Below the pieces are notes generated by a model. It was not told where the DNA came from, made no database searches, and saw only the letters and a list, made by a program, of their open reading frames with translations. Of a stretch of 64,000 bases of DNA, positions 2,979 to 63,603 are shown one piece after another. Positions within the stretch are counted from its first letter, which is position 1. Each line of letters starts with the position of its first letter. The DNA is from Candidatus Babeliales bacterium (lineage in GTDB: Bacteria; Babelota; Babeliae; Babelales; JANWKD01): NCBI GenBank assembly GCA_963722075.1, contig CAVRJM010000001.1, positions 96,001-160,000 of the forward strand. The letters are read 5' to 3'. Both the position numbers and the translations under genes were made by a program.

Positions 2979-4082
2979 TTAAAAATCTAAATTGTGGGCT
3001 GATTGTTTTATATTTTCTCTTGTTAGTCCAATCATTTGTAGGATTATGGAGAAATCATTAAATGATGGTGATGGCATTGCCAGACGAGAAAAAGAGGTTC
3101 CGCATATGTTATCCCCTTCTAAGGATGGTATGCATTTTTGAATAAGAGGTAGTTCAGGCATCTTAAAACAGATATTTGGTGAGCAACAGCATGCTAAGAT
3201 ACCTACGGTGGTTGAGCAGAGAATGCAGGTGCAAAGAAGCGGTACTAAAATAGGCTTTGAAGCTATACATCCTAAAATCGTTGATAAGCAGCACATAGAA
3301 GAAGCACACGCTTGTTCAAGCGGTACACAATAACGACTTGTCGCGATACAATTGATGACAAGATTTGAACGATATTTCCGCTGCATAACATATCGATATA
3401 ATCTTTCCAACAGCTCTTGACGTAGTAAGCAATAATCAACTTTGCTAATATTCTCTTCAATGAGCGAAGGGGGAGTAAGTGTATTATCTTGGTAATCATC
3501 TAATATTTTTGCACATCCATATTCATTAATTAACCAGCAACGGAGGCATGCATGAAGCAATTGTAGATCATTAAAATAAGGAGATGGTTGTTTTAATTTT
3601 CTGCCAAATTGCAAAGCTCGTCGCAATAGTTTTTCTTTAGGTAAAGTTTGCTCTTTTATACCTTTAATTAAGCATTTTACGTGATACAATGCGAGCTTGT
3701 TGCTTGATTGGTTTACCGTTTCTTTTGTTAGGTATTTAAGATGTATAAAATAAGCCAATGCTGCATTATCAAGAAAAGGAACGATATAAGCGATGATTTC
3801 ACGCGGTAAATTTAGAAAGCGTTCCATTAATTCTTTTGTTTCTTTTGAAATAGGAGTACGGGGCTTAGGTTGGTTTGATGATTTTGCTAATAACGGCGTG
3901 TGCTCATTATAGTCATCATAATCCTCTTGATCGATATCTGATAATAAGGTAGCAATTCCTTCCTGAAAATCATGAGCGTAGTACGGCTTTGATGAAGAGG
4001 CTTCCATTTCCCACTCCATGCCCAGCAAAGAAAAAGATGATAACCAAAGTACGCAAAAAAGTATTGAATGAGTTATTTTCAT
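2979..4082 (-). CDS. Secreted F-box-like protein with a Cys-rich hydrophobic C-terminal region
   Basis: Signal peptide ending LLG|ME; FLNLPREIIAYIVPFLD fits the F-box LPxEI..I..L consensus. Confidence 0.65.
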   Translation of the reverse strand: MKITHSILFCVLWLSSFSLLGMEWEMEASSSKPYYAHDFQEGIATLLSDIDQEDYDDYNEHTPLLAKSSNQPKPRTPISKETKELMERFLNLPREIIAYIVPFLDNAALAYFIHLKYLTKETVNQSSNKLALYHVKCLIKGIKEQTLPKEKLLRRALQFGRKLKQPSPYFNDLQLLHACLRCWLINEYGCAKILDDYQDNTLTPPSLIEENISKVDYCLLRQELLERLYRYVMQRKYRSNLVINCIATSRYCVPLEQACASSMCCLSTILGCIASKPILVPLLCTCILCSTTVGILACCCSPNICFKMPELPLIQKCIPSLEGDNICGTSFSRLAMPSPSFNDFSIILQMIGLTRENIKQSAHNLDF

Positions 4083-4492
4083 TTTGAAGGTTCCTTATTT
4101 ATTCTTTCTAAAACAACCACGGCGGTGGCATATGATTTATTATGAGTCAAAGAAAGATGTGCGTGAATAGTTTCTTTATGTATCAAGAATTCAGATAGTT
4201 GATCCCATTGTATTTGAAGGTAGGGAGCATTGAGCTGATTATGGATAATTTCAACTTTTTTACAAATAGTTAAAAAAGGAGCTTTTTGCGTACTGCTTGT
4301 TGAAAAAGCCTTAAAAAAGGCTTCTTTGGCTGCAAATCGTACCGCAAAACGTTCTGCATTTTTAATTTTATTACTAAGGCAATATCCAATTTCCACTGCA
4401 GAAAACACCTTTAAAAGGGTTTTTTGTGGGTATTGATGCCAGAGATTAAACCGGGATATTTCTATAGAATCGATACCGAGCGCAATAATCAT
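4079..4492 (-). CDS. acpS: Holo-[acyl-carrier-protein] synthase
   Basis: GIDSIEISRF, RFAAKEAFFKA, LSLTH. Confidence 0.93.
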   Translation of the reverse strand: MIIALGIDSIEISRFNLWHQYPQKTLLKVFSAVEIGYCLSNKIKNAERFAVRFAAKEAFFKAFSTSSTQKAPFLTICKKVEIIHNQLNAPYLQIQWDQLSEFLIHKETIHAHLSLTHNKSYATAVVVLERINKEPSK

Positions 4493-4501
4493 AATTTCAG
4501 A

Positions 4502-4529
4502 TTGACATTAATTTTATATGTGATATTAT
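4502..4529 (+). promoter_or_regulatory. sigma70-type promoter
   Basis: TTGACA-N16-TATTAT upstream of 4579. Confidence 0.5.
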
Positions 4530-4578
4530 ATATACTAATTATTTATTTATCATATATTTTATCAATGGAATATTTTTT

Positions 4579-5298
4579 ATGAAGAAACTTCTTTTATTTT
4601 TATTTATTTGTTTATTAGAGTTTAGTTTACTTGCTATGGAAGTCCCTGAGGCTAGTGAAAAAATGGTGATTTCAAATAATGATATTAAAAAGCAACGGCT
4701 AATGAAATTGAAAATATATATCAATCAATATATTGTCGGTGAAAAGCGTAATTACTCAGTTAATGAAATTATGGAAGAAGCTGAAAGATTTTATACGGAA
4801 AACACTGGCGAGTTTTTAAATTTACCCACTAATAAAGCATTGTATAGTAAAGTAGCCAGCAGGATGGATAAAAAAAGAGATAAAATTGCTATCGATTTTA
4901 TTATGTATGCAAAGACCGTTGATTTGGAATCACCATATTACTCAAAAGACGAATTATTAAGCGAAATAGAGGGATATATTAAAAATGGTGGAACAATTTT
5001 AGATAGTGCATACAGCGAATTATATGAAAGCATTGTTGATACTATTTTAACAAAAAAAATAGTTGAAGCCGGGCAGGAATTATCTGGGCTACAAAAAGAA
5101 GTAAAAGAAATGAAAGCAAAAAATGGATTTATAAAATTAATGTATGGTTTTTCTGATAACGATCAATTAGAGAATATAAATGAAGATTTACTTGATTTTC
5201 CTCCAGTTCCATTGTTGGATTTGCCTTCAGTGCCTTTGAAGAAAAGTAAGAACGTTTCCAAAAGAATAATTGAGTCAAATAAATCTAAGAAAGAGTAA
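4579..5298 (+). CDS. Secreted helical protein, paralog family A
   Basis: Signal peptide LLA|ME; shares an ELYE..I..IL plus coiled-coil motif with the two downstream genes. Confidence 0.75.
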   Translation: MKKLLLFLFICLLEFSLLAMEVPEASEKMVISNNDIKKQRLMKLKIYINQYIVGEKRNYSVNEIMEEAERFYTENTGEFLNLPTNKALYSKVASRMDKKRDKIAIDFIMYAKTVDLESPYYSKDELLSEIEGYIKNGGTILDSAYSELYESIVDTILTKKIVEAGQELSGLQKEVKEMKAKNGFIKLMYGFSDNDQLENINEDLLDFPPVPLLDLPSVPLKKSKNVSKRIIESNKSKKE

Positions 5299-5328
5299 TC
5301 AAAGCAAATAATATATGGAGTATTTTTT

Positions 5329-5832
5329 ATGAGAAAATTATTTTTACTACTATTTATATGTTTATTGGATTTTAGTTTAACTGCTATGCAACCTACTAAA
5401 GAATTTGAAAATAATATGCCATCGGTGGCTTCAAGTTATTTTGTTAAATGTGGAGCAGTATTAAAAGAATTTGAGAATTATTTAAAAAAATACAAAAGAG
5501 GGGCTTGTTGTACCTTTGAGGATTCAGAATCAATAAGCTTGCAAGAAGAAATTTTAATAAGAGCAAGGAAATTGGCTGAGGAAGATCCAGAGGAGTTTTG
5601 CACAACTGAATTTTGCGTATTATATGAAATGATAATTAATGAAATCTTTGAGGATGAAGAAATAAAAAAAGCATTGGAAGAGGTTAAGAGATTGAAAAAG
5701 GAACATATTAGTATTCAAAATGACAATTCTCGATTGCGAGCACAATTAAGGCAATGCCAATCGGAGCCAAAGGAATTGGATGAATTAGATTTGAATGCAA
5801 CCCAAGATAATTTCTCCGATGAATCTTATTAA
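5329..5832 (+). CDS. Secreted helical protein, paralog family A (may extend to about 5972 via a frameshift)
   Basis: Signal peptide nearly identical to 4579 (LTA|MQ); VLYEMIINEIF..KKALEEVKRL. Confidence 0.72.
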   Translation: MRKLFLLLFICLLDFSLTAMQPTKEFENNMPSVASSYFVKCGAVLKEFENYLKKYKRGACCTFEDSESISLQEEILIRARKLAEEDPEEFCTTEFCVLYEMIINEIFEDEEIKKALEEVKRLKKEHISIQNDNSRLRAQLRQCQSEPKELDELDLNATQDNFSDESY

Positions 5833-6068: not shown

Positions 6069-6878
6069 ATGAATAAATTTTTTTTATTCCTATCATTTTT
6101 GTATATAGGTACTGTCGGACATGTTCTTATCCCTATGGATTATAACGCTGTATCCATATATCAAAACGAGTCACCGATGGTTTTAGATGATCTATCTAAA
6201 GCAATATTAGGTGGATTAAGAAATTATATACGAGAACAAAAAAAAGAAGACGCTTATGTGGAAGCTGAAAAGTTACTGCAAGCAACAAAGCTGGTGAAGC
6301 AAAACCCATTTCAATTCTCTACCATTCTACCTTCTGAATTATATGAAATAGTAATTAATAATATTTTGAAAAAGGCACTTCATGAGGTACAAGAATTACA
6401 AAAAGAGTTTCAAAATATACAAAAAGAAATGAAAGATATAGCTGGGCAGGTTAATACACTAATTAATCAGCAGCAATTGGCTCAACCTGTTGAAGCGTTG
6501 CCGGTATATGAACCGTTTAAGCCATTTAATTTTGTTTCTTATTCTCTTGAAGATATGGGAGAGGAATCTCTTTTATCAGAAATTATATTGGGACCTGATA
6601 ATTACAATGATGGTGAGCATGAAAATCAAATTGATCTTGTTGTTGCAATGAGCCAGGTAGAAGGACAACAACCTGATAATGATCGTGCTTATAATCCTTT
6701 TCATGGAAAAAGTTCGGCTTTGGTAAGTGGCAGTAATCATAAAGGGCCTTTTTTAGCAGAAATGGAAAAAGGAAAGCATTTACGTAGGAAGTTAGTAAGC
6801 CCTTACCAAAAAAGAAAAAAATCAACCAAAAAAACGGGACGATTCGAAAAAACTAATTCAGAAGAAAATGATCACTAA
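6069..6878 (+). CDS. Secreted helical protein, paralog family A, with basic C-terminal tail
   Basis: GGAG RBS before ATG 6069; ELYEIVINNILKKALHEVQEL; tail RRKLVSPYQKRKKSTKK. Confidence 0.72.
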   Translation: MNKFFLFLSFLYIGTVGHVLIPMDYNAVSIYQNESPMVLDDLSKAILGGLRNYIREQKKEDAYVEAEKLLQATKLVKQNPFQFSTILPSELYEIVINNILKKALHEVQELQKEFQNIQKEMKDIAGQVNTLINQQQLAQPVEALPVYEPFKPFNFVSYSLEDMGEESLLSEIILGPDNYNDGEHENQIDLVVAMSQVEGQQPDNDRAYNPFHGKSSALVSGSNHKGPFLAEMEKGKHLRRKLVSPYQKRKKSTKKTGRFEKTNSEENDH

Positions 6879-14165: not shown

Positions 14166-15686
14166 ATGTATAAAAAGATATTTTTCCTATTATTAATACC
14201 CATTTACTTAAACGCCGTGTCATATCGATTAGGAAATTCTAATTGTCAGCAAGGTTTTTTTAGTATTTTTCATACAGTATTGGGCGCCTTAGATTTTTAC
14301 GAAACCAATGAAGAATGTACTGGCTTAGTAATAGATTTTGGCACCAATGATTACTATTACGACCCTTCATATGGCTCTAATTGGTGGGAATATTATTTTG
14401 AACCCATTAAGCTTGGCATGGTTGATACTGTCGATAAAGATTTTGTTACGTATAAAAATATTATTTTTAGTAATATTGGACAATTCCTATTACCGCTTGA
14501 TCATGCTCATGAGCTTATTAATAAGTATATAAAAATTAAACCAGCTATCCAAAACAAAGTTGATTCCTTTGTGCAGGAACATTTTGACAGTAAAAAAGTA
14601 ATTGGCGTTCATTATCGAGGCACAGATAAAAAATCTGAAGCGCCGAAAGTTCCTTATGAATATGTTGCAAATTTATTAAAGAGAGAATATATCACCGATC
14701 CCGCTATTTATTTTTTTGTGGCAACCGATGATCAACTGTTTCTTGATTTTATAAAAACTATTTTTCCCCATAAAATAATCTATATTGATGCATTACGCTC
14801 TTGCGATGACCATAATGTACATTCCGCTGCATGTGAAAGTCCATATAAAAAAGGAGAACAGGCCCTTATGGACTGTTTATTACTTTCACGATGTTCAAAG
14901 CTGTATAAAACCGCTTCTCATTTAAGTGATTGCTCAATAAAATTTAATCCCGCTCTTCCGGTAGTGCATATTTGTAAAAGCTTTTTTGAAAGTAATTATT
15001 ATAACTTCTATCATACCCATAAAACGGTGGGAGCGATCATAGATCTTTTAGATGGGTACGAAAAAAAAGAAAATGAAGGATTCTCGGTTTTCCTTCCTAT
15101 GCATACTCAAGAGAATTGGTGGGATCAATTTTTTGAACCGCTTGCAGTTGGTAATAAACAACTGACACAATTGCATGATTATGATTTAACGGTACACGCA
15201 TTACCATGTCTTTTTGATATGCCGCGCACACGAGGCAATGAGTTATTTAAAAAATATTTAGTATTTAAACCAGCCCTTCAAGAAAAAATAAAAAATTTTA
15301 TACAAAAGTATTGCCCAAATAAGTATATACTTGGGGCTTACTTCAGAAAACATGAATTATTAACACCAATCGATAATCAAGCATTTATTGATATGTTAAA
15401 AAGTGAGATTGCAAAAATAAATCAGGATTATGTTGTTTTAGTGTTTTGTGATGAGGCATTGTTCTTTCAAGATTTAATAAACAATAATATCTATCAAATA
15501 GCCAGTCCGCTATTAGATAAAAGCTTAGTTTCTGAAGTTCGCGGTGAGTTTGAATTACTGAGCTTGGCAATTCTTGCTCACGCCGATAAAATAATAGGCG
15601 CAGGAGCCACCGGATTGAAACTTCTGGGGCATATGAATGCTGATATGCCTATTATTGAATATGAAAAATCTTGGTTAGAACAATAA
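14166..15686 (+). CDS. Secreted NodZ-like (GT23-type) fucosyltransferase with an internally duplicated domain
   Basis: IGVHYRGTDK, FFVATDD, ALMDCLLLSRC; second copy NWWDQFFEPL..LGAYFRK..LVFCDE. Confidence 0.75.
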   Translation: MYKKIFFLLLIPIYLNAVSYRLGNSNCQQGFFSIFHTVLGALDFYETNEECTGLVIDFGTNDYYYDPSYGSNWWEYYFEPIKLGMVDTVDKDFVTYKNIIFSNIGQFLLPLDHAHELINKYIKIKPAIQNKVDSFVQEHFDSKKVIGVHYRGTDKKSEAPKVPYEYVANLLKREYITDPAIYFFVATDDQLFLDFIKTIFPHKIIYIDALRSCDDHNVHSAACESPYKKGEQALMDCLLLSRCSKLYKTASHLSDCSIKFNPALPVVHICKSFFESNYYNFYHTHKTVGAIIDLLDGYEKKENEGFSVFLPMHTQENWWDQFFEPLAVGNKQLTQLHDYDLTVHALPCLFDMPRTRGNELFKKYLVFKPALQEKIKNFIQKYCPNKYILGAYFRKHELLTPIDNQAFIDMLKSEIAKINQDYVVLVFCDEALFFQDLINNNIYQIASPLLDKSLVSEVRGEFELLSLAILAHADKIIGAGATGLKLLGHMNADMPIIEYEKSWLEQ

Positions 15687-17986: not shown

Positions 17987-18261
17987 ATGAAATTAAATAA
18001 ATCAATTTTTCTATTGATTACATCAATAATGTTGTATGGCTATGCGATGAAACGCGAAAGAAATGGAATTCAGCAGATTATTGTGTCAGATAGAATGTTT
18101 GAACCGAATAAGCTACCTGAAGCAGCACAAGAAAATAAACAATTGAATAAACTCATAAAAACAGATAAAAAAAAGAAAAAAAACCAAAAAATGATTCATT
18201 TGAAAATGATACATTTGTACCAGAGGTAGGTGTTTTTCATATGGAAATGGAGAATACCTAA
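17987..18261 (+). CDS. Small secreted hypothetical protein with a probable 1-nt frameshift in a poly-A tract
   Basis: Signal peptide YGYA|MK. Adding one A in the 18167-18183 A-runs gives KPKNDSFENDTFVPEVGVFHMEMENT*, whose stop overlaps the orn start (TAATG). Confidence 0.55.
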
Positions 18262-27585: not shown

Positions 27586-29274
27586 ATGAAAAAAATAACT
27601 TATTTATTACTGCTTTTGCCATTTGCATTACGGGGTATGGAATTTGCCCCTAAAAATGAATATGATTTTTTAACGAAAGATGGTAAAACCATTACCTTTA
27701 AAAAAACTATATGCCAAAAATGTACGACATTAAAAAATTGTATAGATAATGAGCAAACAGTTGAATCAAGCGATGAAAAAAGTATAGCTCGTTTGCCATT
27801 TTCTTTTAATACGCTTAGCCAGTTGCGCAATCTTATTAATCATGCAAGCAATAAAAGAAATAATAATAATATAAATGAGCTATTTGAATATTCCTTACCT
27901 GATTTTATTGAATTATTTAAAGCAGTAACGTATTTAGATTGCTCTGTTGTTAGACCATTTATTATGAATAAACTTGTTAAAAATTGTGTTGAATTATTAC
28001 CTGAAACATACATTAATTTAAAACTTGCAAATGAAATAGGTATTCCTGAAAGTGATGTTGGCATTAACGAAATATGCTTATTATTAAAAGAAGAAACTGA
28101 TAGCATTAAAAATTTACAAAAGCATATCAAGCCCAATGAAATTTCTTTAACAGTAAGTGCTACTTTTTTAAATACATCTATTACCGGTTCCACTTATCCC
28201 GTTTATGATAATGAAATAGATGGTTATGGAATAATTGATATCGAAAGTAAAGCACGAAAACATACCGTTTATACGATACCTAAAGATCGTGTATTACAAA
28301 TTCACACCTTCAATGATGTACATGTAGTAATTTCGCATAATACTGAAACCAACCAGTACAAAATAACAATGCATCAGCCAAACGCAAACCCAATAATAAT
28401 TCGTAGTGCTAGCAAAATTCATTCCGTTAATTTATCCCCTGATAAGAATAGCTTACTTATTGGTTGTGGCGGTGGTAGCATGTTTGAATATAATTTGAAA
28501 ACAAGAAAACCTATTCTTATAAATACTAACGCACGTTTTGTTTTTTTGGTTCAGTATTCACCGTGTGGAACACATTTTGTTGGAGTTTCTGAAGGTAAAG
28601 TAAAAATCTGGGATACACCAACAAAAAAATGTCTTGCTGAATTGGTGACGAAGCCATATAATCAGCTTACCCTTGGTAAGACCGTATCCTTCTCAGCTCA
28701 TAACGAAGTAGCATACATTGGATTAGATGATACGATTCATATTATTGATTTGAATTCAATAACAGAAAAAGTACCTAATGAAATAGTAATTTCAATGCCA
28801 GAATTATCAGAAAGTACGGCTTTATGCTTTTCTTCTGATGGCAACTATTTAGCTGTACAAAAAGGCGAAAGCGAAGTCATTTTAATCGATAGAGTCGCAA
28901 AGCAAATCGCGTATCGCTTTGCTAATTTTGCTAAGGAACTAAAAATTGGCGGTATATTTTTTAGTGAGGATGATTCTCAAATTAAATTGTATGATGCTCA
29001 TCATCAAAAAATGTACTGTTTTCCTTTATGTATATCTAAATCATATATTGCATCATTAACAAATGAACAGTTATTATTGTTAACACATATTGCTGATCAA
29101 TATGCTACTAATGAGGACGCGGTAGTTTTACCGCAGTTGGCTTTATCCAAGGTACCAAATTCATTAGCGGCTGCTCTTACAAAATCGAATATTATAAGAA
29201 CAGTTTCTTGGAAGGAGCTAACAGTTTCTTGGATGGCAAGACTAAAAAATAAAATTGGCTCAATATTAGAGTAA
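27586..29274 (+). CDS. Secreted Skp1/BTB-like plus WD40-repeat protein
   Basis: Signal peptide LRG|ME; LTKDGKTITF..CTTLKNCI and FIELFKAVTYLDC resemble Skp1; WD-like blades (SVNLSPD, VQYSPCG..VKIWD, LCFSSDGNYLA). Confidence 0.7.
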   Translation: MKKITYLLLLLPFALRGMEFAPKNEYDFLTKDGKTITFKKTICQKCTTLKNCIDNEQTVESSDEKSIARLPFSFNTLSQLRNLINHASNKRNNNNINELFEYSLPDFIELFKAVTYLDCSVVRPFIMNKLVKNCVELLPETYINLKLANEIGIPESDVGINEICLLLKEETDSIKNLQKHIKPNEISLTVSATFLNTSITGSTYPVYDNEIDGYGIIDIESKARKHTVYTIPKDRVLQIHTFNDVHVVISHNTETNQYKITMHQPNANPIIIRSASKIHSVNLSPDKNSLLIGCGGGSMFEYNLKTRKPILINTNARFVFLVQYSPCGTHFVGVSEGKVKIWDTPTKKCLAELVTKPYNQLTLGKTVSFSAHNEVAYIGLDDTIHIIDLNSITEKVPNEIVISMPELSESTALCFSSDGNYLAVQKGESEVILIDRVAKQIAYRFANFAKELKIGGIFFSEDDSQIKLYDAHHQKMYCFPLCISKSYIASLTNEQLLLLTHIADQYATNEDAVVLPQLALSKVPNSLAAALTKSNIIRTVSWKELTVSWMARLKNKIGSILE

Positions 29275-29313: not shown

Positions 29314-30768
29314 TTATAAATATTTTTTTAATAATTCTGGAATAATTTTAGGATTTGCTTTACCTGCTGTTTTTTGCATAATTTGCCCTACAAAGAACCC
29401 AAACATTTTTTCTTTGCCAGATTTATATTCAGCAACCTGAGCGGGAAATTGTGCAATTACCTCTTTAACAATCTTTTCAATTTCTTCAGTCGATTGTATT
29501 TGCTCAAGGCCACGTTCTTTAACAATTGCTTCAGGGGATTGCCCTGTTTGGGCAATAACGGCAAAAACTTCTTGAGCACCACGGTTATTAATAATACCGC
29601 TATCTACTAAGTTAACTAATTGAGCTAATTTTTCGGCGGTAATTTTACATTCAGCTAATGCTACTTTGTGCTCTTTTAAATAACCCATCAAATCGCGTAA
29701 AATCCAATTTACTAAAGATTTACTTGAAGTATGATTTGCTGCCTCTTCAAAATAGGTACATAATTCAGGATCTTCAATAAGAATCTCAGCTTCATATACC
29801 GAGATTCCTTTTTGTGTGCAATAACGTTCTAAACGCTGTTCTGGCAGTTCTGGCAACTGTTTTTTTAATTCATCTATTAATTCGTCATTAACGGCAATAA
29901 GTGGTAGATCTGCCTCGCGGCAATAACGATAATCAGCAGCTTCTTCTTTAGAACGCATGGGGCGGCTTATTTGTTCCTTAGTATCCCATTGGCGTGTTTC
30001 TTGTTTGATGCGTTGCCCTGATTCTAGAAGTTCAATTTGGCGTTCGATTTCATATTCAATAGCATCGCCAATAAATTTGAATGAGTTAATATTTTTTAAT
30101 TCAACGCGTGTTCCCAGTTTAGTGTCGCCTTTTTTGCGTACTGATATATTGGTATCAGCGCGTAATGATCCTTCTTGCATATTACCGGTACTAATCCCCA
30201 AATATACTACAATAAGACGCAATGTTTTAAGATATGCTTTTGCTTCTTCAGCAGAACTGATATCTGGGTGGGTGACTATTTCAAGTAACGGGGTACCAGT
30301 GCGATTGAAGTCAACAAAACTTTCATTGGAATGCGTTGCATGAATATTTTTGCCCGCGTCTTCTTCCATATGAATACGCATGATTCGTACATTTTTTTTA
30401 GTACCATCAGCTAATCGACTGCGAATATGGCCATTTTGGCAAATGGGCTTATCGTTTTGTGTAATTTGGTAATTTTTGGGCAAATCAGGATAGAAATAAT
30501 GCTTGCGCGCAAATTCTGATACCGGAGTGATAGTACAATTAGTTGCTATACCTGCTAAAACTGCATCATATACCACTTGTTTATTTAATACCGGTAATAC
30601 GCCTGGGTATCCAGTGCAAATTTGGCAGATATTGGTATTTGGTTCTTGTACGGGCTCATTAGAGCAGGTGCAAAATATTTTTGTTTTGGTATTTAATTGA
30701 ACATGTACTTCGATACCAATAGTGCATTCATATTCAGGATATCGTTGTAATGCAGAGAGCTCAGCCAT
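29314..30768 (-). CDS. gatB: Asp/Glu-tRNA amidotransferase subunit B
   Basis: IGIEVHVQL, RKHYFYPDLPKNYQITQ, HMEEDAGK, RVELKNINSF. Confidence 0.97.
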   Translation of the reverse strand: MAELSALQRYPEYECTIGIEVHVQLNTKTKIFCTCSNEPVQEPNTNICQICTGYPGVLPVLNKQVVYDAVLAGIATNCTITPVSEFARKHYFYPDLPKNYQITQNDKPICQNGHIRSRLADGTKKNVRIMRIHMEEDAGKNIHATHSNESFVDFNRTGTPLLEIVTHPDISSAEEAKAYLKTLRLIVVYLGISTGNMQEGSLRADTNISVRKKGDTKLGTRVELKNINSFKFIGDAIEYEIERQIELLESGQRIKQETRQWDTKEQISRPMRSKEEAADYRYCREADLPLIAVNDELIDELKKQLPELPEQRLERYCTQKGISVYEAEILIEDPELCTYFEEAANHTSSKSLVNWILRDLMGYLKEHKVALAECKITAEKLAQLVNLVDSGIINNRGAQEVFAVIAQTGQSPEAIVKERGLEQIQSTEEIEKIVKEVIAQFPAQVAEYKSGKEKMFGFFVGQIMQKTAGKANPKIIPELLKKYL

Positions 30769-31318
30769 GATGTTCCTTATCCGTGTTATTTGTGGTTAAG
30801 AGCGCTGCGGTTTGTTGAGGTTGTTGTTTAAAATAATTTATGAGATCTTTTACGCTGTCAAAACCAATAAATTCTCCTGTTTGAGAATTAGTAATACGTA
30901 TATTAGGAATTCCATAAAAGGCGCCAAGCTCATCCATTCTTTTGCGGACAAATGGTTCAATATAAGTGCGCATAGTCATAGTTCCTTGTAAATTTTTTTT
31001 TGTGAGCTCATCATAAGTAAGTTCGCCCAGTTTTATTAATGTTGAATGAACTTGCCCAATATTTATACAATATTGTTTTTTTTGCAGTGATATTCTTTTT
31101 TTTCCACTTAAAAGACTGGTTGCATATACAATTGCAGTTGCTTCATCAACAACTTCAAAAGATTCTCCTAGAGAGCCTGCTGGTAAATTTATTAGTTGTA
31201 ACCAGTTGAGGGGTTGAGGAGCCTCAACTTTCATTGCGTTGATTGCTTGATGTGCTAATAAAAAAATTAATAAAGAAATTGTTTGTTTTTTGTACAAAAC
31301 GAATGTTTTTTTAACCAT
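30761..31318 (-). CDS. Secreted hypothetical protein, family C
   Basis: AINA|MK; KLGELTYDEL..TGEFIGF shared with the upstream gene. Confidence 0.7.
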   Translation of the reverse strand: MVKKTFVLYKKQTISLLIFLLAHQAINAMKVEAPQPLNWLQLINLPAGSLGESFEVVDEATAIVYATSLLSGKKRISLQKKQYCINIGQVHSTLIKLGELTYDELTKKNLQGTMTMRTYIEPFVRKRMDELGAFYGIPNIRITNSQTGEFIGFDSVKDLINYFKQQPQQTAALLTTNNTDKEHHG

Positions 31319-46121: not shown

Positions 46122-46505
46122 TTATTTAAAAGGACAGACTTCACTTAATAAACGAGAGGATTTAGCTGTATGCTTACAATATCGATTGCAAATTGACCAA
46201 TTTAATTTTCGCCGATGTGCAAGCTCTTTGGCTGTTAAATATTCATGTCCGAAATGATTAAAAAAGAAAGAACCCATAAAAAAGTTATTAAAAAATAATG
46301 CGCGGCAAGTCTGAGGCATTTTTTTAAATAATTGAGGAATAAGCAAGAAGCTATTGAAGGCAGCCGAAAGCATAAAAGGGTGTTCATAAGCAATCAAAGC
46401 AGCTTTTTTTTTGATACGCTCTTCCTGTTGAATATCCATAGCAAAAAGCGATGAAACGCTTGCAATAAAAAATGCAATAAATAAAAATAATTTTTTATAT
46501 CCCAT
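46122..46505 (-). CDS. Secreted/membrane hypothetical protein
   Basis: SLFA|MD; hydrophobic segments. Confidence 0.6.
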   Translation of the reverse strand: MGYKKLFLFIAFFIASVSSLFAMDIQQEERIKKKAALIAYEHPFMLSAAFNSFLLIPQLFKKMPQTCRALFFNNFFMGSFFFNHFGHEYLTAKELAHRRKLNWSICNRYCKHTAKSSRLLSEVCPFK

Positions 46506-46751: not shown

Positions 46752-47147
46752 ATGAAATTACTATATTTATTTATAGCCCTTGGTTTATGCAGTCCCATCT
46801 TGGCTATGAACAAATGGAGAAGCGTCAAATCATTCGCCCACAAGACATCAGTGGCTACTTATAATAAGTCTTATCAAGCATTACAAAAAACCCCTTGGTT
46901 TCAAAAAACCAAGCAATTCTTTAATGCGCAACAAACAACCGATAGTTCTCCTGAAAAGATGGAGAAGATTTTTATTGCTATTGGTAGTAATCAAATGGTT
47001 GAAGCAGAAGTTAAAATCACCAAAAAGTTAAGCTGGTATCAACATCATCCCTTTAAATTTGCTGCATGGGTAGGGGCAGGTAGTTTTCTTACCGGGTCTA
47101 TTTTTGGGTGGCAGGTAAAAAAGCGATTGAGCAAGAAAAAAGGATAA
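46752..47147 (+). CDS. Secreted hypothetical protein with C-terminal TM and basic tail
   Basis: PILA|MN; FAAWVGAGSFLTGSIFGW followed by KKRLSKKKG. Confidence 0.7.
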   Translation: MKLLYLFIALGLCSPILAMNKWRSVKSFAHKTSVATYNKSYQALQKTPWFQKTKQFFNAQQTTDSSPEKMEKIFIAIGSNQMVEAEVKITKKLSWYQHHPFKFAAWVGAGSFLTGSIFGWQVKKRLSKKKG

Positions 47148-53286: not shown

Positions 53287-53736
53287 ATGAATCGTAAATT
53301 ATATGTATTAGTTCTAGTAGTTCTATTTTTTAATAATAATTTTTCTTTAGCAATGAATAATGAATTAAATACATTGGATGTATTTGATAATTTTTTCAAA
53401 GATGTTGCCATTTCAACGTTAAAAGTTGGAGCAGGAGCTGCTATCGGTTATTTTGGCGCGGTAACATTAGGTGAAGCAATGTGCGATCTCTTACAGTTTT
53501 GTGAATTGGGATTAATGGCAACAGGCATGTATGAGAGCCATGATCAAATTGCGGTACAAAGCCGTTCCGGATTTAAACAAATGGCAAAAAATCAGTTATT
53601 ATATGGGGAATTCGTATTATTATCTCCTAATAAATCTATTTCCAAGGGGACGTTGGCAAAACTAATTTTAGGGGGAAGTAGCTTATACGTGAGCCATGGT
53701 TTAATAAAAGATGCTCTTAATATTATTTTAAAATAA
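53287..53736 (+). CDS. Secreted/membrane hypothetical protein
   Basis: FSLA|MN; Gly-rich hydrophobic helix VGAGAAIGYFGAV. Confidence 0.65.
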   Translation: MNRKLYVLVLVVLFFNNNFSLAMNNELNTLDVFDNFFKDVAISTLKVGAGAAIGYFGAVTLGEAMCDLLQFCELGLMATGMYESHDQIAVQSRSGFKQMAKNQLLYGEFVLLSPNKSISKGTLAKLILGGSSLYVSHGLIKDALNIILK

Positions 53737-55847: not shown

Positions 55848-58481
55848 ATGACATCGGTGCTGATGAACGTACTGTTATTTTTTTCATTTTTCTTTTCAAT
55901 TCCTTGTATTGTATATGCAGATAGTGATACTAAATCACCTGAACCCATTGCTTTAGAAGAGGATTTATGGCGCATAACAGAACCACAACAACAACCCCCT
56001 GCATTGCCTGTTGAACCCATATACGATAATGCAGATGACGTTTCAATTGTATCGCAACATAAATTAAAAGATAAAGCTGAAAAAACAACTAACAATGATA
56101 TGAATCCACAAGACAGGATGGTCCCTGCAAAACCGCTTATTAATGATATTATCATTATTGGCAATAATCAGGTAGGTACTGATGCAATTCTTAATAAAAT
56201 TCCCTATCACGTTAATGAAGAATATACACCGATCAAATCAAAATCCCTTATTTCAAACCTAATGGAGATGGGATACTTTAAAAACGTATCGCTTAAAGGG
56301 GAATTACTTCCGGATAATAAAATAAATCTATATGTGATACTAGCAGAAAAACAACCACTTAAAGAGGTGATTTTTAAAGGGAATAAGCATTTATTAGAAA
56401 AAGATATAAAGAAAAAAATTAAATTTAATGAAAAACCCGCTATTGATGAAAGTGATCTTAAAAAATTTATTAATGACCTTAAAAAATTATATAGAGAAAA
56501 AAACTACCATAACGTTGAAATCGAAGCACAGCTAGAAGATGCTGGCCAGGGTAAGGTAAATGCCGTTTTTACCATTACTGAAAATAAAAAATCTGCTGTT
56601 CAACGAGTTTTTTTTGAAGGGAATAAAGCATTTTCTGATAAAGAGTTACGGGGCCTCATATTCACGCGTGAAGATTGGGTATTAGGGTTTATGGATAAAG
56701 CTGGTTTTTATCAGCCAGAAGCAATCGAAGCAGATCGCCATATGTTGGAAAATTTTTACCAAAGCCGAGGGTATTTAAATGCAAAAGTAACTGATGTTGA
56801 AATACAGCCTGATGTGCAGGATCCTTATAATATGAAAATAACATTTCATATTCTTGAAGGCGATCTTTATACCGTACGCGATATTAAAGTAGCGGGTAAT
56901 GATGCTGTTTCTGAAGCGGAAGTTTTAAGTCGATTACCCATAAAATCAGGTGATTTATATTCTAAAGAAAAAATTCGTGATTCAATTGAATTAATACGCT
57001 TACTACTGGGGGAATATGGCTATATTTATGCCGATGTTGATCCTTCTATTGAACCCGATAATGAAAATAAGACGGTAAATATCACCTTCTTTACTGAATT
57101 AGGTGATAAAATTACCGTTCGTAAAATTGAAATTCGTGGTAACCAAAAGACGCGCCAAAAGATTATTCGTCGTCAATTATTATTTGATGAAGGTGATTTA
57201 TTAACAACGCAACGCCTTGAAAAATCAAAAGAACGGGTAGAACAATTGGGTTATTTTGATCAACAAAATGGGGTGAGTTGGAAACTTAAGCGGGTAAATC
57301 AGGATATTGCCGATTTAGAACTTTTTGTAAATGAGGTTAAAACAGGGCGTGTAGATATGCAACTAGGTTTTGGTGGTTCGCCGCGTGATTTACAAAACCC
57401 TACCGAATCGTTACGTATTGGTGGGTCTATTTCTGATACAAATTTACTTGGCCTTGGTATTGGATTTAATTTAAGTGGTGAATTTTCAAAGCAAGAACGG
57501 CAACTTCTTTTCAATATTACTGAACCGTGGCTTTTTGATCGTCCTATTTTTGCAGCGCTTGATTTAGCAATCAAAAAATCATTATATGAAGATTTTCAAT
57601 TTACCAAAAATGAAGTAAAAGAGCAGTTGGTAAATGGCTCATTTAGTGTTGGTTTTATTTCTCAAAAATTAAATATGACGCGCTTCCTTTTCCTTTTTGG
57701 GGTAGAAGGGTTGCATTATAATCAACCACCTGAAGTAAACCCAGCCTCAATACCAGATCCAAAGGAAGCGGCAGAATTTACGATGATTCTACAGCGCCGT
57801 TTTCCGCAAGGTAGTTTTGCCTGGACTGGTGCACAAGCAAGCCAGGATTTTCGTAATCATCCGCTGCACCCCAGCCGTGGATATCAATGGCTTATTCAAA
57901 CACGTATGGGCATTCCTAATAGTGGTCATTTTCATTTAGCTTCCGCACCGCAAGCATCTGCCTTCAATTTTGGATTCTGGAAACTAGATGGCGATGCCAG
58001 CTATTATACGCCATTAATTGGTGAACGTGATTTAGTATTTTACTTCCATACCCATTTTGGCATTGTGGGATCATTCCCGGGGAAAGTAATTCCATTTAGG
58101 GAATTGTACCATATTGGTGGTCCGGCCAGTGTTAGAGGGTTCTTATTTGGTGAAATTGGGCCCACCTTCAAAGGCGTCGATTCTATTGGTGCTAAAAAAG
58201 CATTTTGGTTTAACGCTGAGTTAATTTTCCCGGTAGCTCCTGACTTTTCTATTAAAGGAATCGTATTTTATGATGGTGGTGCTGGATGGGATACGCCTGA
58301 TTCGCAAGCAATTTCCAAAAAACGGCTTAAAAATAATAGCTTTAACTATCGTCATTCAGTAGGATTTGGGGTGCGTTTATTGAGGCCTACGCCAATGCGT
58401 ATTGATTGGGGTTTCAAGCTTGATAAACGTAAGGGCGAATCACCGAGTGAAGTACATTTGACGATGTCTCATGATTTCTAA
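55848..58481 (+). CDS. bamA: Outer-membrane protein assembly factor BamA
   Basis: AGGAG RBS before ATG 55848; POTRA repeats (I.F.GN), GGPASVRGF, C-terminal barrel ending in F. Confidence 0.95.
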   Translation: MTSVLMNVLLFFSFFFSIPCIVYADSDTKSPEPIALEEDLWRITEPQQQPPALPVEPIYDNADDVSIVSQHKLKDKAEKTTNNDMNPQDRMVPAKPLINDIIIIGNNQVGTDAILNKIPYHVNEEYTPIKSKSLISNLMEMGYFKNVSLKGELLPDNKINLYVILAEKQPLKEVIFKGNKHLLEKDIKKKIKFNEKPAIDESDLKKFINDLKKLYREKNYHNVEIEAQLEDAGQGKVNAVFTITENKKSAVQRVFFEGNKAFSDKELRGLIFTREDWVLGFMDKAGFYQPEAIEADRHMLENFYQSRGYLNAKVTDVEIQPDVQDPYNMKITFHILEGDLYTVRDIKVAGNDAVSEAEVLSRLPIKSGDLYSKEKIRDSIELIRLLLGEYGYIYADVDPSIEPDNENKTVNITFFTELGDKITVRKIEIRGNQKTRQKIIRRQLLFDEGDLLTTQRLEKSKERVEQLGYFDQQNGVSWKLKRVNQDIADLELFVNEVKTGRVDMQLGFGGSPRDLQNPTESLRIGGSISDTNLLGLGIGFNLSGEFSKQERQLLFNITEPWLFDRPIFAALDLAIKKSLYEDFQFTKNEVKEQLVNGSFSVGFISQKLNMTRFLFLFGVEGLHYNQPPEVNPASIPDPKEAAEFTMILQRRFPQGSFAWTGAQASQDFRNHPLHPSRGYQWLIQTRMGIPNSGHFHLASAPQASAFNFGFWKLDGDASYYTPLIGERDLVFYFHTHFGIVGSFPGKVIPFRELYHIGGPASVRGFLFGEIGPTFKGVDSIGAKKAFWFNAELIFPVAPDFSIKGIVFYDGGAGWDTPDSQAISKKRLKNNSFNYRHSVGFGVRLLRPTPMRIDWGFKLDKRKGESPSEVHLTMSHDF

Positions 58482-58559: not shown

Positions 58560-58883
58560 ATGAAAAACAATAAAATATCTTATTTATTATTATTGTTAGT
58601 TTGTCAAAGCATGCGCGCAATGGAAAATCCAAATCCTGAAAAGGAAGTAAAAAGCGAATATAACCTGCAAGGGCTTGATTTTGCTGATGAAATAATATTA
58701 TCAGCTGCAATACAGAAACTTGAATATTTGAAAAATAATAAGAATAGTATAATCCAAAACTATATAAATAAAGCTGGAATAACCCTGAAAGAGGCAACGA
58801 ATCTATATGACAATAATTTAACAGAAGCTCAGGGCTATTTGGATGAGGTAGTAACGGCGATCAAGAAAGGATTGGGTTACTAA
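58560..58883 (+). CDS. Small secreted acidic helical protein, array family D
   Basis: MRA|ME; NKNSIIQ..TLKEATNLYDNNL. Confidence 0.75.
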   Translation: MKNNKISYLLLLLVCQSMRAMENPNPEKEVKSEYNLQGLDFADEIILSAAIQKLEYLKNNKNSIIQNYINKAGITLKEATNLYDNNLTEAQGYLDEVVTAIKKGLGY

Positions 58884-58937: not shown

Positions 58938-59492
58938 ATGGACGGTTATAACAACTATAAAAAATATTTTATTACGATCATAGGTTTATTACTTGCCATT
59001 TCTTCACTGAATGCGATGCTTTATGATGCGCCTAATAATAATGATAAACGTATCAAAGAAATAGAAGATCATCTGGCCTTCATTAATAATCATATTGATG
59101 AGTTTATTAAAAGTACTATGAAGCAATTTAATATATCAGAAGAAGACGCTATAGAGTATTATCATCAGCTTGTTGATGGCTACGAAGATGAGATTCAAAA
59201 ATTACATGAAAAAGATACGCATCTTGAATATTTCCTGGTATACAATGAGGATCCAGAAAATATTCGTGGCCAATTGAGGGGAATAAATGACGAAATTACA
59301 TATTATGAAAAAGAAAAAAACGATATAATCCAAAATTTTAGTATTGGATATCAGATATCTAAATCAGAGGCACTTGAGCAATATGAAAGGAACTTGTCCA
59401 ATTTAAAAGATGAAAGAGACGGGTTATTACTTTTATTGGGACAATTAAAGCCGGAATTAACGGTAGAAGAATACATTAAAAAAATTGAATAA
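58938..59492 (+). CDS. Family D protein with two modules
   Basis: N-module similar to 59621, C-module similar to 61013. Confidence 0.8.
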   Translation: MDGYNNYKKYFITIIGLLLAISSLNAMLYDAPNNNDKRIKEIEDHLAFINNHIDEFIKSTMKQFNISEEDAIEYYHQLVDGYEDEIQKLHEKDTHLEYFLVYNEDPENIRGQLRGINDEITYYEKEKNDIIQNFSIGYQISKSEALEQYERNLSNLKDERDGLLLLLGQLKPELTVEEYIKKIE

Positions 59493-59620: not shown

Positions 59621-59908
59621 ATGGACGGTAAAAATAAATTTAAAATGTATCTTTTTATAAGTATGCTTTTGCTTACCCTATCTTCATTGTACGCAATGAA
59701 CTATTACGATCAGCGTATCAAAGAATTAACTGACCATGCGCAATTTATCAAAGACCATGCTGAATATTTTATTAAAAGTCATATGAAACAATTTGATGTA
59801 GCAGAAGAAGAAGCACGACGCTTTTATAATGAATTGATGGGTAACTTTGAGCGAAAAATTCAAAAGTTATTTCGGAAAAGAGATGAAGTTAAGAATGTTA
59901 AACGATAG
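59621..59908 (+). CDS. Family D small secreted protein
   Basis: LYA|MN; FIKSHMKQFDVAEEEARRFYNEL. Confidence 0.78.
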   Translation: MDGKNKFKMYLFISMLLLTLSSLYAMNYYDQRIKELTDHAQFIKDHAEYFIKSHMKQFDVAEEEARRFYNELMGNFERKIQKLFRKRDEVKNVKR

Positions 59909-59922
59909 AGAAAGGAGTGATC

Positions 59923-60273
59923 ATGCAAGTACATAAACTATTTTATTTATTAATTTTAATTTTAGGGATTAATTCTGGTATTAAATCGATGGAAAACCCA
60001 TATCCAGAGGGTAGCAGAGAGTTTAGCCGAATGTATGTTCAACAAATACCAGCCAAATATTTAGAAGAAGCATTAAAAAAAGCACAGCAAGACTTTATAG
60101 TATTTAGAGATGGTAAAGAATCTTTCATTCAACAGGTTATGCATGATTTTGGCTATAATAGGGAAGATGTACAATTCGCTTACGACAAGGAGTTAGAAGT
60201 AAAAGAAGCAATTGTAGATAGTATACAAGAGGCTATCAGAAATATACAAAACATCACCGAAGGTGCAGAATAA
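59923..60273 (+). CDS. Family D small secreted protein
   Basis: IKS|ME; GKESFIQQ..NREDVQFAYDKEL. Confidence 0.75.
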   Translation: MQVHKLFYLLILILGINSGIKSMENPYPEGSREFSRMYVQQIPAKYLEEALKKAQQDFIVFRDGKESFIQQVMHDFGYNREDVQFAYDKELEVKEAIVDSIQEAIRNIQNITEGAE

Positions 60274-61012: not shown

Positions 61013-61384
61013 ATGGACGGTTTTATTAAATATAAAAAATCTTTTATTGCAATTATAGGTTTGTTACTTATTTCTTCATTAAATGGAATGGAGCCTGATA
61101 AACCTTCTAAATCTGAGGAACCTAGTGCCTATTATCTAGAAGATCCAGAATATGTTCGTGAGGAATTGAAAGCATTAAATAATGATATTAAATATTATGA
61201 AGAAAACAAAGAAGAGATAGTTCAAAATATTAGTATTGGATATCAGATATCCATGTCAGAGGCGCTAAATCAATACGAACGGCACTTATCTAATTTAAAA
61301 GAGGAAAGGGAGGAGTTGCTGCGGTTATTAGCTCCAGAAAATCCAGAATTATCATTTGAAGAATATGTTAAAAAAATTGAATAA
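61013..61384 (+). CDS. Family D small secreted protein
   Basis: LNG|ME; close to the C-module of 58938 (SIGYQIS.SEAL.QYER.LSNLK). Confidence 0.8.
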   Translation: MDGFIKYKKSFIAIIGLLLISSLNGMEPDKPSKSEEPSAYYLEDPEYVREELKALNNDIKYYEENKEEIVQNISIGYQISMSEALNQYERHLSNLKEEREELLRLLAPENPELSFEEYVKKIE

Positions 61385-61483
61385 CAACAAATAATAAAAT
61401 GCGTAATTATATATAGGTGCGGTAGTTCTTTTAAATTTCAAGTCAGCATTTTAGAAATATAAGATCTTAAATGGAGTAGAAAA

Positions 61484-61768
61484 ATGGACGGTAAAAATAA
61501 ATTTAAAATGTATCTTTTTATAAGCATGTTTTTGCTTACTCTATCTTCATTGCACGCAATGAGCTATTTTGATCAACGCATTTAAGAAATAAAAGATCAT
61601 GCTCAATTTATTAGGGATCATGTAGATGAATTTATTAAAAGCCATGTAAGGCAATTTGGGGTAGATGAAGAAGAAGCACGGCGCTTTTATAATGAATTGA
61701 TGGGTAACTTTGAAAAGAAAATTCAGAAATTGCTTAGAAAAAAAGATGAAGAAAATAAGGGTGCCTAA
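61484..61768 (+). pseudogene. Family D copy of 59621 with a nonsense codon
   Basis: High nucleotide similarity to 59621-59908; AAA->TAA at 61583-61585. Confidence 0.85.
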
Positions 61769-61778
61769 GGGGGAAAAA

Positions 61779-62111
61779 ATGAGCTTTAATAAGTTATTTT
61801 ATTTATTTGTATTAATAATGATAATGGGACGTGATGTTTTTGCTATGGAATATACCGGCTTTTATGTTGAGAGTCCAAGCACTACTCAAATTAAATCTGT
61901 AAACGAACAAATTAAAAGTTTGGAAAAAATGATTCAAGGCATAGAAAAAAATAGGGAAAGATTTGTAAACCGTCGGGTAAGGGAAGGGATGACTAAAGAA
62001 GCAGCAGAAATTGATTTTCAGGATTGGCTTGAAAAAAAGAAAGCGCAATTGTATACGCTAAAAAATCCTGATACAGAAGAAAGCTACGTATCGGAAATAT
62101 GGCAAGAATAA
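61779..62111 (+). CDS. Family D small secreted protein
   Basis: VFA|ME; NRERFVN..MTKEAAEIDFQDWL. Confidence 0.75.
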   Translation: MSFNKLFYLFVLIMIMGRDVFAMEYTGFYVESPSTTQIKSVNEQIKSLEKMIQGIEKNRERFVNRRVREGMTKEAAEIDFQDWLEKKKAQLYTLKNPDTEESYVSEIWQE

Positions 62112-62136
62112 ATTAAAATGAATTGGAGGAGAAAAC

Positions 62137-62456
62137 ATGAAGATGTTTAAGCTAATTTTTATAGCACTATTATATTGATAAGTAACACTAATCTTATTAA
62201 TGCAATGAAGCGTCCATATCGAAGTGATACCTGGGAAGCTCCAGCTTCATCATTTGTGTTTCAACAAATATATACAGATTGGGATAGAAAAGTTAAAAAT
62301 ATGGAAGATAATAGAGATCAAGAAATACAGCAATTGACTATTGATAATCCAACTTGGACTTTAGAAGACGTAGAAAATGAATATAATAGAATTTTAGAAA
62401 ATGCAAAAGCAAACCGTGAGAATGCAAAGAATCAATTTTTATCCGAGATTTCTTAA
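62137..62456 (+). pseudogene. Family D protein with a 1-nt frameshift in the signal-peptide coding region
   Basis: GGAGGAG RBS then ATG 62137 (MKMFKLIFIALL), out of frame by one base with LISNTNLINA|MK.. (62175-62456). Confidence 0.65.
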
Positions 62457-62597
62457 TTTTTTACTATTGTATTGCCAAATGAAATTCCAATAAGATTAGA
62501 TGGGTAATAAAATATCTCTTGAGCTATTTATGTAAGTATAAATTCTATTATAATAAGGTAATAATAATTATTATATTGTTTTCAATAGGAAATATTT

Positions 62598-62936
62598 ATG
62601 AAAATGGCTCATTTTTTTTATATACTTCTTTTTATTAATGGTATTGCAAGTAATGCGATGGAACATTCAGATTCTGAAATTAATTTAATGTTAAAAGAAT
62701 ATCCTCAAGAATTAGATGAAAAAGAATTTTATGCTGGAATGGTAGGGCTAGCTGATGATCTTGTAGGGATATTGGAAACTAGCAGAGAGGAAGAAATAAA
62801 CAATATAATGAAAAGAGATGATTTATCAATTACTGACGCTAGTCAGCAATATATTAAAACCATTGCATATTGGCGAAATTTTAAAGCTGATTATAATAAA
62901 AAACTTCAAGAAGTGAAGAATCAAAACAATAGCTAA
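62598..62936 (+). CDS. Family D small secreted protein
   Basis: SNA|ME; SREEEINNIM..SITDASQQY. Confidence 0.75.
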   Translation: MKMAHFFYILLFINGIASNAMEHSDSEINLMLKEYPQELDEKEFYAGMVGLADDLVGILETSREEEINNIMKRDDLSITDASQQYIKTIAYWRNFKADYNKKLQEVKNQNNS

Positions 62937-62961
62937 ATTTTATATTACATCGAAACATTCT

Positions 62962-63294
62962 ATGAAAATAACGTATTTTTTTTATTTATTACTATTATTA
63001 GCTGGATATCAAAATTTAATACGATCGATGGAAGCGCCAAAAAAATTATCAATAAGTGAGCGGCGTCGTAACCTAGTGCCATCACGACGTTTTCAGAATC
63101 CTGATGAAATTATTAAATTGCTCGAAGGTAGCAAAAAGCAAATGATAGAAGAAAAAATGCGTAAAAATCCCGAGATGACGTATCAAATGGCAGAGGTTGC
63201 ATATTGCCAACGGTTAGATGAGGTAAAACAGCATCATTCTCAAAGAGCTTCGCCGCCTGAAATTCAAGAATCAAAAAATTCGAACAAACAATAA
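62962..63294 (+). CDS. Family D small secreted protein
   Basis: IRS|ME; SKKQMIEEKM..MTYQMAEVAY. Confidence 0.75.
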   Translation: MKITYFFYLLLLLAGYQNLIRSMEAPKKLSISERRRNLVPSRRFQNPDEIIKLLEGSKKQMIEEKMRKNPEMTYQMAEVAYCQRLDEVKQHHSQRASPPEIQESKNSNKQ

Positions 63295-63324
63295 TTAAAA
63301 TTTATATTACATCGAGGTAATTCT

Positions 63325-63603
63325 ATGAAAGTAACATATTTTTTCTATTTATTTCCTTTTTTTACTGCAATGGTTGTAAGACCTATGGAGCATAAAAGAA
63401 ATTTTGAGCAAGAGCGAATTAAAACAAGAGCTGATATTGTAATAGCAGTTATTAAGGATCTTATTGGTCATAAAGAAACAACTATTCAACGTATAATGAA
63501 TAATAACAAGCTTACTTATGATCAGGCACAACAAGAATATAGAAATACACTTATGATATGTTCACAAGAATGTTCACAATTGCTTAGCAAAATGAATGGA
63601 TAA
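63325..63603 (+). CDS. Family D small secreted protein
   Basis: VRP|ME; HKETTIQRIM..LTYDQAQQEY. Confidence 0.75.
   Translation: MKVTYFFYLFPFFTAMVVRPMEHKRNFEQERIKTRADIVIAVIKDLIGHKETTIQRIMNNNKLTYDQAQQEYRNTLMICSQECSQLLSKMNG

Follow-up and report, generated by a model that had tools for sequence, protein, structure and literature searches.

Methionine at the predicted first mature position of effector-like signal-peptide proteins in a Babelota genome

Introduction

The ends of proteins delivered by bacteria can be read or modified by the host cell, as in listeriolysin O, which is turned over by the N-end rule, in Legionella proteins prenylated at a CaaX box, and in AvrPphB, which cleaves itself and is then myristoylated. 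The mature ends of Plasmodium proteins with an export element (PEXEL) carry Glu, Gln or Asp as second residue and are N-acetylated. For the Q-rule of Bacteroidetes, the title of a follow-up paper reportedly links the rule to protein stability. The Q-rule itself places Gln at the first mature position (+1) of signal peptidase I substrates independently of their compartment (PMC5837995), and in the intravacuolar Plasmodium the mature N-terminus left by cleavage sets host-bound apart from resident proteins (PMC10653839). Here we describe a related pattern, namely Met directly after the predicted signal peptide and mostly followed by Glu, Asp, Asn or Gln. It was noticed in a window of 64,000 nucleotides, meaning the whole stretch of DNA under study (C1:96001-160000; window positions are counted from its first letter), which belongs to a 1.47-Mb, 34.7% GC and 99% complete genome (G000) of the phylum Babelota (Dependentiae, TM6). 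The placement follows from a conserved protein whose homologue, at 49% identity, is assigned to Candidatus Dependentiae bacterium, and from a phylum sample made up of a single order with small genomes.

Like the Q-rule, the Babelota pattern fixes one residue at +1 of signal peptidase I substrates and is specific to a phylum. Unlike it, the residue is Met, the second residue follows a code, the cargo appears to be effector-like only, and no bacterial modifying enzyme has been identified. Gln in about half or more of the substrates, as in the Q-rule, was not found here (27 of 580), and neither was independence of compartment (Met in 18 of 30 eukaryote-like versus 2 of 39 envelope and secreted-hydrolase proteins). 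With PEXEL export the pattern shares an intravacuolar parasite, hundreds of proteins that would be exported and a cleaved mature N-terminus. However, Babelota would use a Sec signal cut at a -3/-1 site with Met fixed as first residue, and there is no RxL motif (L/S/I/A/V at -3 and A/S/G/P at -1), no plasmepsin V and no known translocon. Listeriolysin O, the Legionella CaaX proteins and AvrPphB are single proteins, whereas the code described here extends over about 150 unrelated families and the whole phylum.

Cultured Babelota live as parasites inside protist cells and encode very large numbers of signal-peptide proteins (PMC6561590; PMC4378268), and the source bacterium is likely a parasite of single-celled eukaryotes as well. 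Signal-peptide proteins make up 44% of Chromulinavorax genes (PMC6561590) and 42% here, and the genome resembles those of Babela and Chromulinavorax in its ankyrin effectors with signal peptides and in type II as the sole secretion system (PMC4378268; PMC6561590). A +1 rule and CaaX ends are absent from the passages of these two papers, their supplements being outside our coverage, and the papers on Babela, Chromulinavorax, the Q-rule and the diplonemid symbiont do not contain the word methionine in their main texts. In the literature covered, which excluded supplements and most subscription papers, we found no published description of the Met rule. The pattern bears on how bacteria that have no type III, IV or VI injectors deliver hundreds of effectors into protists.

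Results and Discussion

Met at +1 and the second-residue bias

Genes of the whole genome (1379) were obtained with a purpose-written gene caller, and signal peptides with a purpose-written heuristic that scores the n-region, the h-region and the residues at -3 and -1 and never sees the +1 residue. The heuristic called 637 signal peptides; after removal of 57 proteins that had at least two additional membrane helices, 580 were analysed. Met exactly at the predicted +1 is termed strict, and the loose set (225 in total) adds 51 proteins in which Met follows an acceptable site close by; some of these additions are false calls, e.g. AMNLEA. The non-Met comparison set comprises the other 355 proteins.

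The +1 Met rule is real, genome-wide and far above chance. Strict Met was found in 174 of 580 signal-peptide proteins, compared with a background of 1.6% in mature sequence, and two other weight matrices gave 72/307 and 193/634. A check that does not depend on a predicted cut showed that 70% of the 335 Met located just after h-regions are preceded by A, G, S or C, versus 25% of all 8120 positions. The enrichment survived the de-replication proposed in a first-pass annotation of the window: among 423 BLAST-clustered families, 115 carry a strict and 146 a loose +1 Met, as do 94 of 358 singletons. By the heuristic, the signal peptides of both classes have a basic n-region, a hydrophobic h-region and the usual total of 15-30 residues, most often 17-24. 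Met genes are clustered in arrays (117 adjacent pairs versus 82 when shuffled).

The second mature residue of the 174 strict proteins is E, D, N or Q in 142, K, R or H in 19, small in 7 and bulky hydrophobic in 6, with expected shares, taken from the next 28 residues, of 25%, 15%, 34% and 25%, respectively. No bias of the E/D/N/Q type was detected at the third position, and Pro is enriched at +4 (45/225 in the Met class versus 26/355). A cut two residues further on is unlikely, because E, D, N and Q cannot occupy -1 of a signal peptidase I site.

The first-pass annotation had considered that the Met might be a vestigial start codon left when signal peptides were fused to captured reading frames. 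Such an origin, or likewise an internal restart or a copied signal cassette, would fit a Met class that is rich in orphans (151 of the 333 proteins without Pfam match carry Met) and clustered in arrays, and gene callers indeed begin at the +1 Met in 12 of 225 cases, as does the public call P0220. However, a ribosome-binding site precedes 1.8% of +1 ATG codons versus 59% of true starts, and true starts of genes without signal peptide continue with K, N, I or S, with E in 25/574. Met-Ala and Met-Ser, which are common at eukaryotic starts, are nearly absent here, and the Met is kept in all 11 genes of an array with 16% median identity (see below). The related idea of host translation from a Kozak context was rejected, as Ser codons at -1 showed no purine bias (AGY in 23/58 Met versus 30/88 non-Met), and so was a shared DNA cassette, as cross-family matches of signal-region DNA were short and not specific to Met (44/112 genes). 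The vestigial start is not supported, and we regard it as very improbable. The Met rule itself accounts for mis-annotated starts in Babelota genomes.

The Met class has mainly L, S, I, A or V at -3 and A, S, G or P at -1, with the atypical Pro at -1 in 12/225; both Leu at -3 and Pro at -1 occur more often than in the non-Met class. Together with the presence of two signal peptidase I genes in the genome, this might indicate a dedicated peptidase paralogue, or simply better cleavage before Met with no role in the host. Genomes with a single peptidase match nevertheless show Met (7/37 in G001, and ME in 5/5 ankyrin proteins of G002), and envelope proteins, although cut by the same enzymes, do not carry it. 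We give this explanation hardly any credence.

Two other kinds of mature end were seen. Gln, often Gln-Pro, follows the signal peptide of RING, UCH, MavL-like and phospholipase proteins (C1:1132271, 1134491, 931468, 217581 and 1149061), and the Gln-starting proteins are possibly a second, pyroglutamate-capped class. Furthermore, several Met-Lys starts read MKR-x-R/K, similar to a nuclear localisation signal (NLS), at C1:394994, 397169, 975617 and 977783 and at window positions 17987 and 62205. As a mark of the class, an NLS within the first eight residues did not differ significantly (4/225 Met versus 2/355 non-Met).

Proteins that carry the Met

The Pfam scan covered 449 of the 580 proteins, with the first 450 residues of those encoded outside the window. 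Matches were grouped by hand from family names, and counts by domain class are loose unless marked strict. The first-pass annotation had noted that recognisable envelope proteins lack the Met and had proposed a comparison with eukaryote-like proteins, and both the observation and the contrast hold genome-wide. Met was found in 18 of 30 proteins with eukaryote-like domains (Ank, WD40, Skp1, C2H2, RING, UCH, SET; 11 strict) versus 2 of 39 envelope and secreted-hydrolase types (0 strict; p=6e-7), and in 0 of 15 core envelope proteins. All Pfam matches that are not eukaryote-like gave 11/86. By family, Met is present in DnaJ (3/3), AAA (2/2), Sel1 (1/1) and metallophosphatase (2/3) proteins; DnaJ and AAA domains depend on Hsp70 or on ATP, and the periplasm contains neither. 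Three secreted DnaJ-domain proteins starting G|MQ lie at C1:304120-310000 and would need host Hsp70. These comparisons of sequences support the view that Met marks effector-like and not envelope proteins.

A further feature of the Met class is found at the other end of the protein. A CaaX C-terminus (CLVS, CLIS, CLLS, CILM, CILF and others) occurs in 9/225 Met proteins versus 0/355 non-Met proteins. The nine proteins (C1:812523-825808, 980472 and 1328018; C3:20045; C4:15299) form six families (family-level p=0.002), with four of the nine in one family, and none is in the window. Proteins are prenylated in the cytosol of eukaryotes, and the restriction of CaaX boxes to the Met class points to the host cytosol. 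NLS-like clusters are found in 58/225 Met versus 44/355 non-Met proteins, while the classes could not be told apart by cysteine parity or by PTS1 and KDEL ends. The two-residue mark, in separating likely host-bound cargo from envelope proteins, could serve to predict effectors in about 150 orphan families of this one genome.

Distribution in Babelota and a Ser parallel in Holosporales

In Babelota relatives, strict Met was found in 71 of 571 signal-peptide proteins, with E/D/N/Q following in 49 of 71. The sample combines random regions with ankyrin-rich ones, ten of its loci were placed in Babelota by BLAST identity or resemblance, and counts among relatives are descriptive, as kin are not independent. 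Of 58 Babelota Skp1/F-box loci 47 had a signal call, 28 of these Met (18 strict), and 23 of the 28 E/D/N/Q. DUF2608 homologues with a signal call never showed Met (0/86). In two relatives (G036 and G040) the ankyrin proteins mostly start with Ala after the cut. CaaX ends were seen in 14 of the 571 proteins, ankyrin proteins included.

The outgroups gave strict Met in 1/311 (Chlamydiota 0/46, Bdellovibrionota 1/60, Elusimicrobiota 0/14, Sel1 homologues 0/28, Holosporales plasmids 0/70, and a clade with nucleotide transporters, of which nine genomes were sampled, 0/93). This clade (G073-G088, G195) has up to 9 transporter matches per genome within a phylum of mostly transporter-free genomes and is a probable separate intracellular lineage.

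The Holosporales plasmids, in turn, show a preference of their own. Three plasmids of Ca. Paracaedimonas acanthamoebae, an Acanthamoeba symbiont, were read over 372 kb (CP008937-CP008939), leaving aside the last 19 kb of one of them and a fourth plasmid; the sample is thus one species and plasmids only. Ser occupies +1 in 45 of 70 signal-peptide proteins and in 29 of 47 families, and Thr in 7 of 70, compared with Ser in 11/93 in the nucleotide-transporter clade as control. F-box, LRR, Sel1, NB-ARC, RNase III, patatin and TPR proteins of the plasmids have Ser in 11/15 and orphans carry it as well, versus 1/6 for conjugation and outer-membrane proteins, these six plasmid proteins being the whole housekeeping control. 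Ankyrin and antitoxin queries for plasmids returned no useful symbiont records. The counts suggest a Ser rule in an unrelated lineage that parallels the Met rule of Babelota, and with it that host N-terminal quality control might convergently shape symbiont secretomes.

Export route and fate in the host

The genome encodes two secretins, a GspE-type ATPase and a GspF-pseudopilin cluster (C1:1190264-1194848, identified by eye), and no match was found in this 99% complete genome to TolC, the type III export gate, VirB4 or the type VI sheath. Secretins are present in 61/61 Babelota genomes. A pair of large secretins (800-930 amino acids) about 4.7 kb apart at C1:1152861-1160265 is kept in nearly all Babelota genomes searched. 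In the vacuole-dwelling Babela type II is the only secretion system reported (PMC4378268), Legionella type II substrates reach the amoeba cytosol (PMC5478897), and vesicles are an alternative means of export (PMC6561590). The two-step effector route of the first-pass annotation thus finds a complete type II operon and no other export marker in its favour; its two variants, mimicry of a host translation product and a sorting tag, are not separable by sequence.

Our leading reading, which we consider about equally likely to be right or wrong, is that the Met-E/D/N/Q proteins are effectors whose N-terminus would escape the N-degron pathways of the host. Signal peptidase I would leave Met-(Glu/Gln/Asn/Asp) at the mature end, and the proteins would exit by Sec and then by the type II system and pass the vacuole membrane into the host cytosol, where the Met-acidic/amide end, being the class that N-degron rules leave, likely escapes degradation. 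Acetylation by NatB, which acts on the same class, may add protection but is not needed in this model.

The rules are as follows. Arg/N-degrons include N-terminal R, K, H, L, F, Y, W, I, D, E, N and Q as well as Met when the next residue is bulky and hydrophobic, aminopeptidases cleave off a Met that precedes a small residue, and in animals another pathway, termed GASTC, recognises G, A, S, T and C when unmodified (PMC11441550). MI, ML, MY and MF peptides captured UBR4, KCMF1 and UBR2, whereas capture by a Met-Glu peptide without acetyl group was impaired (PMC10611716). Since these rules predict both gaps, the depletion of small and of bulky hydrophobic second residues would follow from them, with no need for acetylation.

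Several observations weigh against escape from N-degrons. Among the second residues that degron rules allow, E/D/N/Q make up 142/161 against 62% expected over K/R/H, and avoidance alone therefore does not explain the bias, which leaves room for NatB acetylation or a sorting tag. NatA-E are ribosome-associated (PMC10611716), so that it is conjectural whether a folded protein would be acetylated after delivery. GASTC degrons in animals weaken the Ser/Ala parallel unless protists lack the pathway or acetylate these ends; the N-degron rules are those of yeast and mammals. The Met class is not exhaustive either: 12 of the 30 eukaryote-like proteins lack Met (RING, UCH, SET, one WD40 and eight ankyrin calls, two of the latter being miscalls as judged by eye), many non-Met proteins are also orphans, and only 4/14 CaaX proteins of relatives were called Met. 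Strict Met was 0/17, 0/11 and 0/23 in the relatives G043, G045 and G041, and in randomly placed Babelota regions E/D/N/Q follows Met in only 14/32. Finally, all cleavage sites are predictions of our own heuristic. Applied to 100 kb of E. coli, it made 16 calls, one of them with Met, which was a miscall of LamB; OmpA and OmpF were cut at their known sites.

The excess of E/D/N/Q beyond degron avoidance is also what one would expect if the mature Met-E/D/N/Q end were a sorting tag read by an export step of the parasite (type II selection, vesicle loading or a vacuole translocon), similar to PEXEL. The enrichment of Pro at +4 and the seeming fixation of one residue per lineage (Met, Ala, Ser), as expected of lineage-specific receptors, fit such a tag, and in Plasmodium a signal-peptidase cleavage that gives the proper mature end suffices for export (PMC10653839). 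However, none of the secreted-type hydrolases (4 GH1, GH3, peptidases M3, S9, C11 and C39) has Met, and the Met therefore does not mark type II substrates in general. There are CaaX and ankyrin proteins of the same genomes or of close lineages that lack Met, secretins occur throughout the phylum while the Met share ranges from none seen to a third, and no translocon candidate turned up, although no systematic search was made. We consider the sorting tag rather unlikely, though it is the strongest competitor of degron escape.

Less probable still, and in our view quite unlikely, is selection for N-terminal acetylation by a host or a secreted bacterial enzyme that would serve binding partners, membranes or folding and not mainly escape from degrons. 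The order E>Q>N>D at the second residue equals the specificity of NatB for Met followed by acidic or amide residues (PMC10611716), with the substrate pattern present in 142/174, and the Holosporales Ser rule corresponds to NatA specificity. Structure models predict a disordered, exposed N-terminus, and the genome encodes four signal-bearing or anchored GNAT acetyltransferases (C1:577510-582037 and 929670). The ribosome association of NatA-E noted above speaks against this explanation, too; about one fifth of the Met ends are not NatB substrates, and the one secreted GNAT that was checked had only weak matches, to general bacterial acetyltransferases. Degron escape, a sorting tag and acetylation can coexist, and the two remaining readings, a vestigial start and a peptidase preference, share a slim chance between them.

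More broadly, and tentatively, unrelated protist-dwelling bacteria might each have evolved a '+1 code' on Sec effectors (Met-acidic in the majority of Babelota, Ala in some of them, Ser in one Holosporales symbiont) that copies the NatB and NatA classes, the two prevailing kinds of N-terminus in eukaryotes. Its reader would be either the quality control of the host or an as yet undescribed vacuole-membrane step resembling PTEX, the Plasmodium translocon of exported proteins. If true, a signal peptide plus the +1 residue would constitute a general and predictable effector route for bacteria without injectors.

Genes of the window

All 23 junctions between signal peptide and Met listed in the first-pass annotation are present in the sequence, and its count of 18 of 23 beginning ME, MD, MN or MQ was confirmed. 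The heuristic found 36 signal-peptide genes in the window and called 19 of the 23, namely 18 exactly at +1 and LIP|MD by the near-site rule; the junctions at 17987 and 63325 were read by eye. The other 17 signal-peptide genes lack Met, and many of them are also orphans. They include three tandem small, helical-looking orphans at 19770-20814 (S|NF, S|EV, A|QS). As negative controls, BamA with POTRA and Omp85 domains (55848..58481, plus strand) reads VYA|D and a NodZ-like glycosyltransferase (14166..15686, plus) reads LNA|V. An N-terminal piece found nothing in the ESM Atlas.

On the plus strand, orphans with Met are located at 4579..5298 (LLA|ME), 5329..5832 (LTA|MQ), 46752..47147 (ILA|MN) and 53287..53736 (SLA|MN). 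The second of these is a paralogue of the gene at 6069..6878 (plus; LIP|MD, with Pro at -1), and its 5' end is 80% alike to that of the first. The gene at 17987..18229 (plus; GYA|MK) encodes a basic protein of 80 amino acids and is absent from the gene-caller set. Minus-strand orphans lie at 30761..31318 (INA|MK), a paralogue of the next one, 31311..31769 (SSA|ME), 31780..32124 (TNA|ME) and 46122..46505 (LFA|MD).

For an F-box and a Skp1-like protein said to carry the Met, the junctions stand and the identities do so only in part. The 367-amino-acid orphan at 2979..4082 (minus; LLG|ME) has an F-box-like motif by eye at about residues 90-113, with no Pfam match at E<=5 and no PF12937 match in the whole genome. 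The protein at 27586..29274 (plus; LRG|ME) is a WD40 propeller by Pfam with a weakly Skp1/BTB-like N-terminal domain, whose likeness to a Skp1_POZ paralogue is weak (E 0.002-0.025).

The remaining eleven genes form a plus-strand array at 58560-63603 that encodes helical-hairpin proteins: 58560..58883 (MRA|ME), 58938..59492 (LNA|ML, with two copies of the hairpin domain), 59621..59908 (LYA|MN), 59923..60273 (IKS|ME), 61013..61384 (LNG|ME), 61484..61768 (LHA|MS), 61779..62111 (VFA|ME), 62137..62456 (INA|MK), 62598..62936 (SNA|ME), 62962..63294 (IRS|ME) and 63325..63603 (VRP|ME, with Pro at -1). Their membership in one family was borne out by leave-one-out hidden Markov models (E 2e-4 to 7e-17) at a median pairwise identity of 16%. 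The +1 Met is kept in all eleven and in a dispersed twelfth copy, and its retention at this identity argues for purifying selection at the protein level. Two of the eleven genes, however, are broken, which corrects the first-pass annotation: the sixth, a copy of the third, has an in-frame stop at 61583-61585, and the eighth, with an ATG at 62137 and a ribosome-binding site, has a frameshift inside the signal peptide; its public gene call begins at the Met codon 62205. The model of the fifth protein (predicted local distance difference test 81.5) has 15-20 disordered residues followed by a long, a short and a long helix. The family had no match among PDB sequences and no fold match; a UBA/HYPK-like resemblance seen by eye was unsupported on testing. 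Eleven of 16 matches to the family profile are this genome's own genes, two are weak outside members (one with and one without Met), and three others look unrelated. An IS200/TnpA-like transposase, identified by eye, is inserted in the array at 60471-60857, with genes 2-3 and 5-6 resembling the two copies of a tandem duplication that surrounds it.

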